From a virus (taxonomy: Duplodnaviria > Heunggongvirae > Uroviricota > Caudoviricetes), in IMG/VR virus record IMGVR_UViG_2529293142_000019, positions 1 to 7,836 of that record: a stretch of DNA of 7,836 nt. One strand, 5' to 3'. The notes below the pieces were generated by a model. That model was not told the origin of the DNA and searched no databases. It saw only the letters and a program-made list of their open reading frames with translations. The position numbers were made by a program, and so were the translations under genes. Every line of letters starts with the position of its first letter. Position 1 is the stretch's first letter. This document shows, piece after piece, positions 2,488-7,836 of this stretch.

Positions 2488-3318
2488 TTACTTCACGGGA
2501 ACGAACGGAACAGCGGTGTTACTGGTCATGTATTGCGGCAGCGTGCCGTTCCATTTGTTGATCGCTTCCAGCTCCATAACGCCGGGATTCTGGCGCAGAG
2601 CTTCGCCGCGTAAACGAATGGCGTCGGCTTCAGCCTGGGCTTTTGTGCGAATGGCATCGGCCTGTCCGGCAGCTTCTGCGCGCAACATGTTGGCTTCTGC
2701 TTCGCGTTGCTTGACTTCCTGTTCGCGTTGCAGGGTTTTCTGGTTTGCCGTGACTTTGGCGTTAATGCTGTCGATAACGGTTGGCGGATATTCCGGTTTA
2801 CCGACATAAGAGAGGCTCATGACCTGAATACCGATGGGGGTCATCTCTTCCTGAATATCTTTAAGTGCTGAATCCAGCAGTTCAGACTTACCACCGTCGA
2901 TAAACTTATCGGTGGTCATTTTGCTGGCCAGTCGGTTGAGTGCATCGGCGATCTTCTGGCGCAGGTCAGTGTCGGTAATGTCGTCCACGCCTTTGCGGTA
3001 GGTCTGAAACACTGTGGTCACTTTGGATGGATCAACCTTGTAGGCCACGCCGATGTGATAGCCGATGGTTGTGCCATCGCTCATCTGGAAACTGAACGGC
3101 TCATCGTAGGTCTTCATTTGTTTGAAGGTCGGGAAGATGTAAACCTCGGTATTCCAGCCAGTCCAGTAGCGGCCAACGCCAACCACTTCGCCGACGCCTT
3201 TGTCGTCGCCCAGCTTGTTGACTTTGATGCCCACATTACCTGGCTCAACGCGATCGCAACCAACCAACAGGATGGCCGCAAAAAGCGGGATAATCTGAAA
3301 GAGTTTGAGTTTCTTCAT
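2488..3318 (-). CDS. SPFH / band-7 (prohibitin-HflK/C-like) domain lipoprotein, 276 aa
   Basis: N-terminus MKKLKLFQIIPLFAAILLVGCDR has a signal peptide with lipobox LVGC. A central SPFH-like region is followed by an Ala/Glu/Arg/Gln-rich coiled-coil stretch (QREQEVKQREAEANMLRAEAAGQADAIRTKAQAEADAIRLRGEALRQ) typical of SPFH proteins. AAGGA lies about 9 nt upstream of the ATG; the start overlaps the upstream ORF stop as ATGA (3315-3318). Confidence 0.8.
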   Translation of the reverse strand: MKKLKLFQIIPLFAAILLVGCDRVEPGNVGIKVNKLGDDKGVGEVVGVGRYWTGWNTEVYIFPTFKQMKTYDEPFSFQMSDGTTIGYHIGVAYKVDPSKVTTVFQTYRKGVDDITDTDLRQKIADALNRLASKMTTDKFIDGGKSELLDSALKDIQEEMTPIGIQVMSLSYVGKPEYPPTVIDSINAKVTANQKTLQREQEVKQREAEANMLRAEAAGQADAIRTKAQAEADAIRLRGEALRQNPGVMELEAINKWNGTLPQYMTSNTAVPFVPVK

Positions 3319-5806: not shown

Positions 5807-6328
5807 TTAGTTGCCTTCGCTGCTTTTGAGTCGCTCCAGCTTTGAACTTCTGCCTGTATAAACTCGCTTACCGTTAATGGTCTGGCAGTCTTCTTTATTA
5901 GCTGGAAAGAACTTTCTTTTCTGGCGGTCATACGTCCAGTAACTTTTCCAGTTGTGCCATTCTGGTGGCTCAAGTTCCGGTAGCTCGTCAGCCAGTGCGT
6001 CCCACTCTTTGGCGTTAAACCACCATACTCCGTCTGAGTTTTCATCTTCCGGGTTTGTGCGCGTCTTGTGTCCCGGCATTTGACCGCGATGAATGGCTAC
6101 GCGCAGTGCAGATTTTGTTAGCCCAATATATGCCGCGCCTTTTTCCAGAGAGCAAAGCCCGGCGATCGGACCATCCAGCCGTAAAGTCGCTCCTTTTTTG
6201 TAGGAACGCTTTTTCTTGTTTTCTTCGTGTTCGTCGTCGTTGGCGGCATCAATGGATCCGCTGAGTGCGTCACTTTCCTGAAGTGGTTGGTGGTCAGATA
6301 ACTCTTTATCGGCAATGAAGTCCCGCAT
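5807..6328 (-). CDS. Cox/excisionase-like HTH DNA-binding protein, first gene of the early operon, unusually long (173 aa) with an acidic N-terminal extension
   Basis: ATG at 6328 preceded by AGAGGA 6 nt upstream, and divergent from the repressor gene. The central segment LCSLEKGAAYIGLTKSALRVAIHRGQMPGHK followed by WWFNAKEW resembles the winged-helix excisionase/Cox-Apl family arrangement. Sits where cox lies in P2. Assignment is from motif resemblance only. Confidence 0.5.
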   Translation of the reverse strand: MRDFIADKELSDHQPLQESDALSGSIDAANDDEHEENKKKRSYKKGATLRLDGPIAGLCSLEKGAAYIGLTKSALRVAIHRGQMPGHKTRTNPEDENSDGVWWFNAKEWDALADELPELEPPEWHNWKSYWTYDRQKRKFFPANKEDCQTINGKRVYTGRSSKLERLKSSEGN

Positions 6329-6390
6329 TTGTTATCCTCTTGCGTTGGTGCGCTTGTCGCGCCTTGTGATGGTTTGTTTTGGCTTGTAAA

Positions 6391-6448
6391 GATAACCAAA
6401 TGGTTATCTTTGTGCGAGAGGTTAATACTCAAATGGTTATCTTGTCAA
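6391..6448. promoter_or_regulatory. Lysis-lysogeny switch region: 14-bp direct-repeat candidate operators plus a consensus -35 for the leftward early promoter
   Basis: caaatggttatctt occurs at 6397-6410 and 6430-6443 (33 bp apart, about three helical turns). The first copy is also part of an inverted repeat gataacc-aaat-ggttatc (6391-6408). The minus strand carries a perfect TTGACA (plus-strand tgtcaa, 6443-6448) abutting repeat 2, with a weak TATTAA candidate -10 (6422-6427) lying between the repeats. In P2 the C repressor binds direct repeats flanking the -10 of Pe. Confidence 0.5.
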
Positions 6449-6774
6449 TAGACTATGCAAAAAAGTTACGTCAGATACGTAAGGCGGAAGGGTTAACACA
6501 AAAGCAGTTTGCGGATATTACTGGGTTGTCTTTGGCAACCATAAGGAATTACGAATCGGGGCAAAAGAACGCTAGAGCAAAAATCGTTGAGGCGGTTCTG
6601 CAAGTCGATCGCTTTGAAAAATACATGCTGTGGCTAATAAAAGATAAGACGCTACCTGTCGCCGGGCAGATTGCACCGGCTCTCTCTCTTGATGGCTCTA
6701 TTCAGTCGGAGGGCGATCAGGTTTCAATCGGCATTACCCAAAAATCACCCCGATCAGGCCGCAATGTTGGCTGA
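6433..6774 (+). CDS. Immunity repressor, P2 C-like, HTH (XRE-type), 113 aa from ATG 6433 (the ORF is open from a TTG at 6379; an alternative ATG is at 6400)
   Basis: HTH motif LTQKQFADITGLSLATIRNYESG. The C-terminal region KYMLWLIKDKTLPVAGQIAPALSLDG resembles the P2 C repressor as I recall it. Divergent from the Cox-like gene and directly upstream of int on the same strand, as in P2 (C then int). GAGAGG lies 11 nt upstream of ATG 6433. Confidence 0.75.
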   Translation: MVILSIDYAKKLRQIRKAEGLTQKQFADITGLSLATIRNYESGQKNARAKIVEAVLQVDRFEKYMLWLIKDKTLPVAGQIAPALSLDGSIQSEGDQVSIGITQKSPRSGRNVG

Positions 6775-6843
6775 CTCTACACATTGAGCGAATTACATAT
6801 CGCAAGGAGTGTTTAGTTAATTTATCCGTTGGAGGGGCTAATC

Positions 6844-7836
6844 ATGTCGATTAAGCAACTCAAAGACGGACGTTATCAGGTCGATGTCAGACCGCAGGGG
6901 GCGGAAGGAAAGCGGATTCGAAAAATCTTTGCCCTGAAATCAAAGGCTCAGGAGTTTGAGAAGTATGTGTTACAGAACTTTCATGACAAGCCATGGCAGG
7001 CTAAGCCAGCTGATCAGCGGCGATTATCAGAGCTGCTTGATGCGTGGTGGATGCTTGATGGGCGTAATCAGGCTTACGGGGATAGCTACAGGGTTAGGCT
7101 AGGGAAGGTTGTTCGTGAAATGGGAGATCCTCGCGCCAGTCAGATGACGCGAAAATTTATGCTTGAATATCGGTCAGAGAAATTACAGGCCGGATTAATG
7201 CCGTCCAGTATTAATCGTGACTTATGCGTACTGTCTACCATGTTCACGGTGCTGATTGAAGCTGAGGTCTTTCACAACGCGAACCCTGTACGCGGTATAC
7301 GAAAACTGAAAGTTCAGAACACAGAGATGGCCTTTCTTTCTGATGATGAGATTGAACGGCTTCTTGAGCGACTGGAGGGTGATGCGCGTCGTGTTGCCAT
7401 TCTGTGTCTTTCTACTGGTGCCCGATGGAGTGAAGCATCGGAACTACGTGGAGAGCATATCGTTGGCAACCGGGTGACGTTCTTTAACACCAAAAACGGA
7501 AAATCCCGTTCGGTTCCTGTGGCGGATTCGGTCGTGCCTCTGATTAAAACCCGTCGAACGGGGTTATTGTATCAGGTTGATTATCTGAAGTTCCGGGAGA
7601 TTCTTCAGGAGGTGAAACCGGATTTGCCGAAGGGGCAGGCTACGCATGTCATGCGTCATACGTTTGCCACACACTTTATGATGAATGGCGGAAATATTGT
7701 TACGTTGCAACGAATCCTGGGGCACGCAACGATTCAGCAAACAATGACGTACGCTCATTTTTCGCCGGACTTTTTACAGGACGCGATCAACTTTAATCCG
7801 CTGGCTGAAAGTGTCCATAAACTGTCCATCGATTAG
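6844..7836 (+). CDS. int: Tyrosine integrase (phage integrase family, P2 Int-like), 330 aa
   Basis: GGAGG 8 nt upstream of ATG 6844 (the track start at 6829 is a TTG). The N-terminus MSIKQLKDGRYQVDVRPQG parallels P2 Int. C-terminal catalytic signature present: ARWSE (Arg), HVMRHTFATHF (His-x-x-Arg), LGHATIQQTMTYAHF (catalytic Tyr). The stop TAG is at 7834-7836, the window end. Confidence 0.9.
   Translation: MSIKQLKDGRYQVDVRPQGAEGKRIRKIFALKSKAQEFEKYVLQNFHDKPWQAKPADQRRLSELLDAWWMLDGRNQAYGDSYRVRLGKVVREMGDPRASQMTRKFMLEYRSEKLQAGLMPSSINRDLCVLSTMFTVLIEAEVFHNANPVRGIRKLKVQNTEMAFLSDDEIERLLERLEGDARRVAILCLSTGARWSEASELRGEHIVGNRVTFFNTKNGKSRSVPVADSVVPLIKTRRTGLLYQVDYLKFREILQEVKPDLPKGQATHVMRHTFATHFMMNGGNIVTLQRILGHATIQQTMTYAHFSPDFLQDAINFNPLAESVHKLSID

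Follow-up and report, generated by a model that had tools for sequence, protein, structure and literature searches.

The window, that is, the whole 7836-bp stretch of DNA analysed here, comes from a P2-like (Peduoviridae) prophage, whose early region it covers in an orientation opposite to the one customary for P2. On the minus strand, positions 1-1422 carry the 5′ part of the gene for the gpA replication endonuclease, as identified from the annotation of relatives, and positions 5807-6328 encode a 173-residue Cox-family protein, the first product of the leftward early operon. A Phage_Cox domain is detected by Pfam at residues 58-129 of this protein (E = 6e-7), and the corresponding product is annotated as Cox or as a regulatory protein in relatives. 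A 104-bp spacer separates the Cox-family gene from the immunity repressor gene (6433-6774, plus strand), whose 113-residue product falls in the P2 C family (HTH_3, E = 2.7e-11); the same 342-nt coding sequence is annotated by RefSeq in relatives. A P2-type tyrosine integrase gene (6844-7836, plus strand; Pfam Int_N, 9.9e-28; Phage_integrase, 1.1e-18) follows in the same direction as the repressor gene. The P2-type gene order, with a leftward cox-type gene facing a rightward C and with int behind C, is present in the window, as it is in the annotation of relatives. The switch region is 97% identical to that of phages vB_EcoM-569R5 and vB_EcoM-705R2, and the region is found in 324 of 5426 complete E. 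coli genomes, the ST131 strain JJ1886 among them.

Between the replication gene and the switch, the early operon contains a gene for an SPFH (prohibitin-like) domain protein with a lipoprotein-type N-terminus (2488-3318, minus strand), which is likely an accessory (moron) gene. Two Rfam matches above the gathering score are located on the minus strand, one to the C4 antisense RNA (RF01695) at 2177-2264 with 87 bits and one to isrK (RF01394) at 2300-2374 with 66 bits. Both lie inside a mechanically called open reading frame of 224 residues (1814-2488), which is therefore probably spurious; an ‘ash family’ pseudogene is annotated at this position in a close relative. The segment 2177-2374 looks like a P1-type C4/antirepressor-like module set within a P2-type early operon, and such a module could provide an induction route for a repressor devoid of a RecA-cleavage domain. 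The Cox-family protein, at 173 residues, is about twice the length of the Cox of P2 or WPhi; the Phage_Cox domain occupies residues 58-129 only and is preceded by an acidic N-terminal extension. In Chuche, P88_4B11 and Shae_phiSM, which encode related repressors, Cox stays at about 95 residues.

Residues 9-89 of the repressor match the solved structure of P2 C (2xcj/2l49, E = 1.1e-14). The protein is 35.5% identical to P2 C and 50.6% identical to WPhi C (residues 10-96). When compared with the C proteins of phage records (a spread sample of 150 matching records), the nearest distinct repressor among the matches listed is that of Chuche, at 54% identity, and all the others among these matches reach 54% at most. 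HTH_3 is the sole domain returned by a domain search of the repressor, which found no peptidase or RecA-cleavage domain. In the repressor alignment, the G, Q, P and L of a conserved GQIAPAL motif are invariant and both alanines nearly so. The features by which a P2-type C protein is recognised, namely a length of about 100 residues, an N-terminal helix-turn-helix, the GQIAPAL motif and the lack of a cleavage domain, are all found in the window repressor. Immunity classes have been delimited by a C identity of at least 95% within a class (PMC3448106). Both the identity to WPhi C (class III) given above and the 73% identity to the repressor of PhiECO5 (class IX) fall below this threshold, and by this measure the prophage belongs to neither of the two named classes compared.

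The 14-mer CAAATGGTTATCTT is found exactly at 6397-6410 and at 6430-6443, 33 bp apart from start to start, as reported in the original prediction. The similarity of the two copies extends over 19 nt at 17/19 identity (6392-6410 and 6425-6443). In 20,000 dinucleotide-preserving shuffles of 6329-6448, a direct repeat of 14 nt is never reached (mean longest 6.5, maximum 13). The first copy had been described as embedded in a palindrome with 7-nt arms; the actual arms are 11 nt long and perfect (AAAGATAACCA at 6388-6398 and TGGTTATCTTT at 6401-6411), a length that likewise appears in none of the 20,000 shuffles (mean longest 4.4, maximum 9). The core GGTTATCTT occurs exactly three times on the two strands of the 7836-bp window, each time in the switch, with one inverted copy (6389-6397, minus strand) and two direct copies (6402-6410 and 6435-6443, plus strand).

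The putative distal operator (6388-6411) is a perfect 11+2+11 palindrome, AAAGATAACCA-AA-TGGTTATCTTT, which holds the first copy of the repeat and whose arms covary across repressor classes. The putative proximal operator (6421-6444) is a degenerate dyad that holds the second copy; it is centred on the repressor ATG and fills the spacer of the predicted leftward promoter Pe. Its right half, TGGTTATCTT (6434-6443), equals the distal arm. Its left half, TTAATACTCA, matches the half-site at 5/11 positions, exhibits no covariation, and overlaps the Pe -10 element and the ribosome-binding region of the repressor gene. Because this left half is poor and does not covary, a pure dyad model fits the distal site only.

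The repressor ATG at 6433 lies inside the second copy and in frame with the 6379-6774 open reading frame, just as proposed. The alternative ATG at 6400 is indeed present, in frame, in the first copy; it is not conserved and was rejected as a start codon, being lost in most relatives that encode an identical repressor. The suggestion that the repressor would sit on its own translation start is correct to the extent that the site overlaps the start codon on the DNA; this implies no block to translation, and a roadblock to transcription from the repressor promoter Pc is a possible consequence of the overlap. Further operator candidates were discarded or set aside. The sequence GTTATCCTC at 6331-6339 is invariant across classes with differing half-sites and corresponds, on the opposite strand, to the ribosome-binding site of cox. 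The sequence GATAACTCTTTATC at 6297-6310 has a different arm spacing and lies in a region identical in UTI89-class prophages, so that it shows no covariation. A one-mismatch copy at 6524-6532, considered as a third operator within the repressor gene, is at chance level and has no UTI89-class counterpart.

The sequence TGTCAA at 6443-6448, which reads TTGACA on the minus strand, is supported as the -35 element proposed for the leftward promoter. This predicted Pe -35 is situated within repressor codons 4-6, is invariant in the relatives’ alignment, and is homologous to the annotated Pe -35 of P2, which lies in the first codons of C, and to the TTGACA of WPhi. The predicted Pe -10, for which the original prediction named no hexamer, is TAACCT (6419-6424, minus strand); it is separated from the -35 by 18 nt and is the top minus-strand match (score 11.0) of a PWM scan that recovers the known Pe of P2 and of WPhi as top minus-strand matches. 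TATTAA, at a spacing of 15 nt, was rejected as the -10, with a score of 5.8 vs 11.0 and a position that is not conserved. At the position of the Pe -10, a TAnnnT is present in all relatives examined (TATCCT, TAAAAT or TATACT). The weaknesses of Pe are its weak -10 (TAACCT) and its 18-nt spacer, and a stricter consensus scan of 6200-6900 found no sigma-70 promoter; the assignment of Pe as a positionally conserved TTGACA-18-TAnnnT is, at the level of sequence, well supported. With Pe placed in this way, the proximal repeat fills its spacer and the palindrome covers approximately +1 to +24 of the predicted Pe transcript, an arrangement like that of P2 and WPhi. The two repeats flank the leftward -10, in agreement with the original prediction, copy 2 within the Pe spacer and copy 1 at the predicted start region. 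On the opposite strand, the Pe -10 overlaps the Shine-Dalgarno sequence of the repressor gene, GAGAGG (6416-6421, plus strand), whose GAGG is invariant in the relatives’ alignment.

Codons 1-4 of the repressor gene spell the half-site and are translated as MVIL, MVNM or MNSTL in three classes. A TCA serine codon within codons 4-6 (TTG TCA ATA, 6442-6450) is kept in every clade class and is codon 2 in P2; its invariance presumably arises because codons 4-6 also spell the Pe -35. The facing promoter, Pc, is weakly assigned to 6345-6373 on the plus strand (PWM 5.7), where a -35 TTGGTG (6345-6350) is followed by a 17-nt spacer and by TGt and GATGGT (6368-6373). Candidates at the Pc position are also found in the relatives L017 (9.3), L018, L022, L026 and L028, and the location resembles that of the annotated P2 Pc.

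The class-invariant part of the spacer carries four YTTGT repeats on the plus strand (6353-6387) in an exact 10-bp phase, at 6353, 6363, 6373 and 6383. The 11-mer TGTTTTGGCTT (6375-6385) recurs just past the int stop codon of phage 569R5 (8058-8068 of L001), a recurrence length reached in 26 of 2000 shuffles. These elements are candidates for binding by the Cox-family protein, both at Pc and at the attachment site. The palindrome at 6388-6411 was rejected as an intrinsic terminator: none is predicted, the stem is AT-rich, and no U-run is seen in sister classes.

Within the class of the window, the exact 64-nt sequence 6385-6448 is present in 3 of the 283 E. coli genomes with an operator region, and 271 differ from it at 1-3 positions; the exact 14-mer is a minority allele. 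Of eight close relatives that were read directly, seven have the repressor of the window unchanged, the exception being Z1324. Six of the eight carry A or C at position 6401, in the centre of the dyad, which abolishes the ATG at 6400 and renders the 14-mer repeat inexact. Position 6396, in the left arm, and position 6429 are also variable among close relatives. No close relative read shows any change in the right half-sites, 6402-6411 and 6435-6444.

The prophages of ETEC1734, UTI89 and JNE082640 encode a repressor 73% identical to that of the window, together with cox and int genes that are about 100% identical. Relative to ETEC1734, 113 of 116 differences over 5990-7450 fall in 6388-6670, an immunity cassette comprising both operators and repressor codons 1-80, which appears as a block exchanged between otherwise identical prophages. 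The divergent block extends from the first palindrome base to around codon 80 of the repressor gene, and the position of its edge implies that the DNA determinants of specificity must lie at or to the right of 6388. The original prediction had proposed checking whether the repeats covary with the repressor class. This check is positive: the half-sites change together with the recognition helix. In the window class, the distal arms are GATAACC/GGTTATC, the proximal half-site is GGTTATC and the helix is LATIRNYE; in the UTI89 class, the arms are CTTCACC/GGTGAAG, the proximal half-site is GGTGAAC and the helix is VGTIGNYE; in the N51 class, the arms are TGTCG/CGACA, the proximal half-site is CGACAC and the helix is VNTQRYYE.

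For the 16 unique distal dyads, Watson-Crick symmetry holds in 117 of 128 cells at positions ±3 to ±10. Two or three pair types occur at seven of the eight positions, and ±3 is constant. At the central positions, ±1 and ±2, only 9 of 32 cells are symmetric. The overall dyad symmetry is reached by 0 of 5000 column shuffles, and the slid-partner control is biased because dyad centres were picked by maximising symmetry. Among 29 repressor classes taken from IMG/VR and phage records (1000 shuffles each), a dyad with a third direct copy 20-36 bp away is found at p ≤ 0.01 in 7 and at p < 0.05 in four more; for P2 and WPhi, the same scan finds a direct repeat only and no perfect dyad. The perfect dyad of the Chuche class, TTTCTCATATGAGAAA, lies at the proximal position and includes the ATG, so the symmetry is not tied to one position. 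Class spacings cluster at 22-24 or 31-34 bp, which makes the 33 bp of the window typical.

At L015, where the repressor is 92% identical, the distal site is again a perfect 11+2+11 palindrome, AAAGATACTCG-TG-CGAGTATCTTT, with four inner bases that differ from those of the window in both arms. The inner distal-arm bases of L015 and L016 (repressors 90-92% identical) differ from their proximal site, and the mixed, non-identical arms of L016 make positions -5 and -4 look loosely constrained. Across L015, L016 and L017, all from IMG/VR (repressors 88-92% identical), the distal inner arms vary (GATACTC, GATAATC) and the proximal site stays the same. In the WPhi group (L034, L036, L037, L042-L044, L048, L074, L077, L083 and L002, which is WPhi), a near-invariant AAAAGG(T)-N12-(A)CCTTTT surrounds the distal operator at about -60 to -35 from the C start, while the 12 inner nucleotides differ from one repressor class to another; this inverted repeat may belong to the operator as its conserved outer portion, or it may form a hairpin at the 5′ end of the Pe RNA. 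In L072, which encodes a distant C-family repressor and has no evident second copy, positions -53 to -26 from the C start form a perfect 28-bp palindrome, ATAAAAATCCTCAATTGAGGATTTTTAT.

In the known systems, P2-type C proteins bind as dimers to two directly repeated half-sites (PMC1904268). These half-sites are 8 bp long at a spacing of 22 bp, flanking the Pe -10, in P2; 8 bp long at a spacing of 26 bp, on either side of the Pe -35, in P2 Hy dis; and 10 bp long at a spacing of 34 bp, flanking the Pe -10, in WPhi (PMC1904268). The statement that the copies of the window lie about three helical turns apart, with a length and period unlike those of P2, is borne out, as 33 bp fits the 34 bp of WPhi and not the 22 bp of P2. 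The crystal structure of P2 C reveals a symmetric dimer close to palindrome binders such as P22 c2, and its authors proposed that one dimer occupies each half-site, one helix recognising the repeat and its partner making contacts of lower specificity (PMC2995052). P2 C cannot bind a single half-site (PMC2995052).

WPhi (class III; Liu & Haggard-Ljungquist 1999; PMC1904268, PMC1904263) resembles the window in its homologous C, in two operator copies about three turns apart that flank the Pe -10, and in a TTGACA -35 next to the C start. Its sequence contains GTCACCAAT twice, 34 bp apart, and a TTGACA-17-TATATT adjoining the C ATG. The proximal site of WPhi, AGTCACC-AATA-GGTTACT, is a 6/7 pseudo-dyad whose centre resembles the GATAACC-AAAT-GGTTATC of the window. 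WPhi differs from the window in its half-site sequence and immunity class, in a Pe spacer of 17 nt and in a Cox of about 90 residues; its 10-bp repeat has been described as non-palindromic, and its O2 has no matching second arm. P2 itself (2xcj) shares with the window the protein family, the gene order, operators flanking the Pe -10 and a Pe -35 in the first codons of C; the P2 record annotates its O1 and O2 operators and its Pe -35 at these places. Face-to-face Pe and Pc with overlapping transcripts are a further mark of the P2-type switch; in the window, convergent promoters are assigned by homology with P2, with Pc as a weak candidate. The 8-bp repeats of P2 lie 22 bp apart, with no usable dyad found, whereas the window has one perfect 24-bp palindrome.

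The closest counterpart is PhiECO5 of UTI89, assigned to a tentative immunity class IX in a study where its operator was not located (PMC3448106). It has an identical class of Cox-family protein, an identical integrase and the same integration next to dmsA, and its switch likewise combines a dyad at the distal position with a half-site on the ATG at the proximal one, spaced by 32-33 bp; it departs from the window in a repressor that is only 73% identical and in half-sites CTTCACC/GGTGAAG vs GATAACC/GGTTATC. As in P22 c2 and 434 cI, a symmetric helix-turn-helix dimer would be paired with a dyad whose centre of about 4 bp is non-contacted (PMC2995052). Unlike in those systems, no operator is shared by both switch proteins and one site is only a half-dyad. 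The lambdoid CI/Cro arrangement is further set apart by a Cox that is identical where the dyads differ, by promoters that are, by homology with P2, convergent and by a repressor with no RecA-cleavable domain. The dimer sites of C.Esp1396I are directly repeated and bound cooperatively (PMC2995052).

Judged by protein homology, gene order and operator position, the region belongs to the P2 C/Cox switch family, and on this agreement its original assignment to the operator and promoter part of a P2-type C/Cox switch holds. The family feature of two operator copies 2-3 turns apart spanning the Pe -10 or -35 is present, as is an operator that differs between classes together with helix 3 of C, here within the block 6388-6670. 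The family feature of non-palindromic direct-repeat half-sites does not hold at the distal site; single half-site behaviour is confined to the proximal one. The claim of direct rather than inverted repeats is accordingly upheld for the proximal operator, which keeps one good half, and not for the distal operator, a perfect 24-bp palindrome whose arms change in concert.

The reading nearest to P2 is that C recognises only the two direct copies, each dimer making a single specific contact, and that the palindrome's left arm is incidental. The operators of P2 and WPhi were experimentally defined as direct repeats (PMC1904268, PMC2995052) and gave no perfect dyad in the scan; the two right half-sites are invariant among close relatives, with the left arm polymorphic at 6396; and the proximal site is without a good left half. 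For the proximal site alone, this reading is possible. As an account of the whole region it is unlikely, given that the left arm changes with the right arm in every clade class (the 117/128 symmetric cells at ±3 to ±10), that an 11-nt perfect arm is absent from all 20,000 shuffles, and that a dyad with a further copy reaches p ≤ 0.01 in 7/29 classes, with the perfect dyad of Chuche at the proximal position. The least probable alternative is that the repeat arose by chance in T-rich intergenic DNA. Nothing but the low complexity of the spacer speaks for it, and it can practically be dismissed in view of the 0/20,000 shuffles for repeat or palindrome and of a pattern that is conserved and covarying in relatives.

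The palindrome might instead act mainly in RNA. At the 5′ end of the Pe transcript it would give a 4-nt loop on a 10-bp stem, which might, for instance, stabilise the RNA; in the Pc leader, alternative pairings might make the repressor start codon accessible or mask it. In its predicted fold, the Pe leader has a hairpin at the 5′ end (-18.5 kcal/mol, z = -4.0, 0/200 shuffles as stable), palindromic covariation with a free 4-nt centre is also the expectation for a stem-loop, the common C>T change at 6396 gives a G-U pair in the plus-strand RNA, and WPhi-group phages keep the AAAAGGT-N12-ACCTTTT inverted repeat invariant at the same place. Such a fold is, however, automatic for any DNA palindrome, and the fold of the Pc leader is unexceptional (z = -2.1). 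A role in RNA also leaves unexplained the third direct copy in the Pe spacer, which is located upstream of the Pe start and varies in step, as well as the covariation with the recognition helix and the cassette boundary. The dyads of L027, L088 and L072 are perfect through the centre and leave no loop, and other classes have their dyads at the proximal site; a hairpin there would mask the start codon. Overall, the RNA reading is improbable. That the dyad is a binding site of Cox or of a host factor rather than of the immunity repressor seems very improbable. Cox-family proteins do bind this spacer in P2 (PMC3448106, PMC3936717), but the Cox of the window is about 100% identical to that of UTI89 and ETEC1734, yet most arm positions of the dyads are different. 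Direct repeats spaced by one turn are what Cox and related factors bind (PMC7498355), and such an arrangement is found instead at 6353-6387.

We consider it probable that the region consists of two operators of a P2-family C repressor within a convergent-promoter lysis/lysogeny switch. Binding, stoichiometry, transcript starts and autoregulation are here what we infer from the DNA and its relatives. Each operator would be a 24-bp dyad for one symmetric C dimer, with centres at 6399/6400 and 6432/6433, 33 bp apart, which would place the two dimers on roughly the same face of the DNA. The degeneracy of one half of the proximal site is proposed to result from that site also encoding the Pe spacer, the ribosome-binding region, the ATG and codons 1-4. 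Bound C would occupy the Pe spacer and start region, turning off cox and the early operon, and lysogeny and immunity would thereby be maintained. The silencing of Pe should relieve interference on the facing Pc and thus favour Pc, as described for P2 (PMC3448106). At high levels of C, the same complexes, located within the Pc transcription unit, could limit repressor synthesis, resulting in negative autoregulation. In conclusion, the prophage represents a new immunity class of a known switch, with operators that are dyads rather than purely direct repeats; the switch is otherwise of an ordinary, well-understood phage type.

P2 C has been cited as unusual in that a symmetric helix-turn-helix dimer acts on non-palindromic direct repeats, and the mechanism is still a model. 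It is conceivable, and only a little short of an even prospect, that P2-family C repressors are dyad binders in general and that the direct repeats of P2 are dimer sites with one decayed half each, the decay having taken place under the overlapping constraints of promoter, ribosome-binding site and start codon. In the limited literature searched, no P2-type C protein was found to be described with dyad operators. The lineage is common in E. coli and offers at least three natural specificity variants in a backbone that is otherwise 100% identical, a series ready for half-site swaps, heteroimmunity tests and dimer-DNA structures, and the 283-bp immunity cassette is usable for typing these prophages. 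The clade presents a perfect palindrome beside a half-site embedded in codons 1-4, together with natural swaps of specificity in an otherwise identical backbone. If the dyad reading is true, the question of how a symmetric dimer reads direct repeats would become directly testable.
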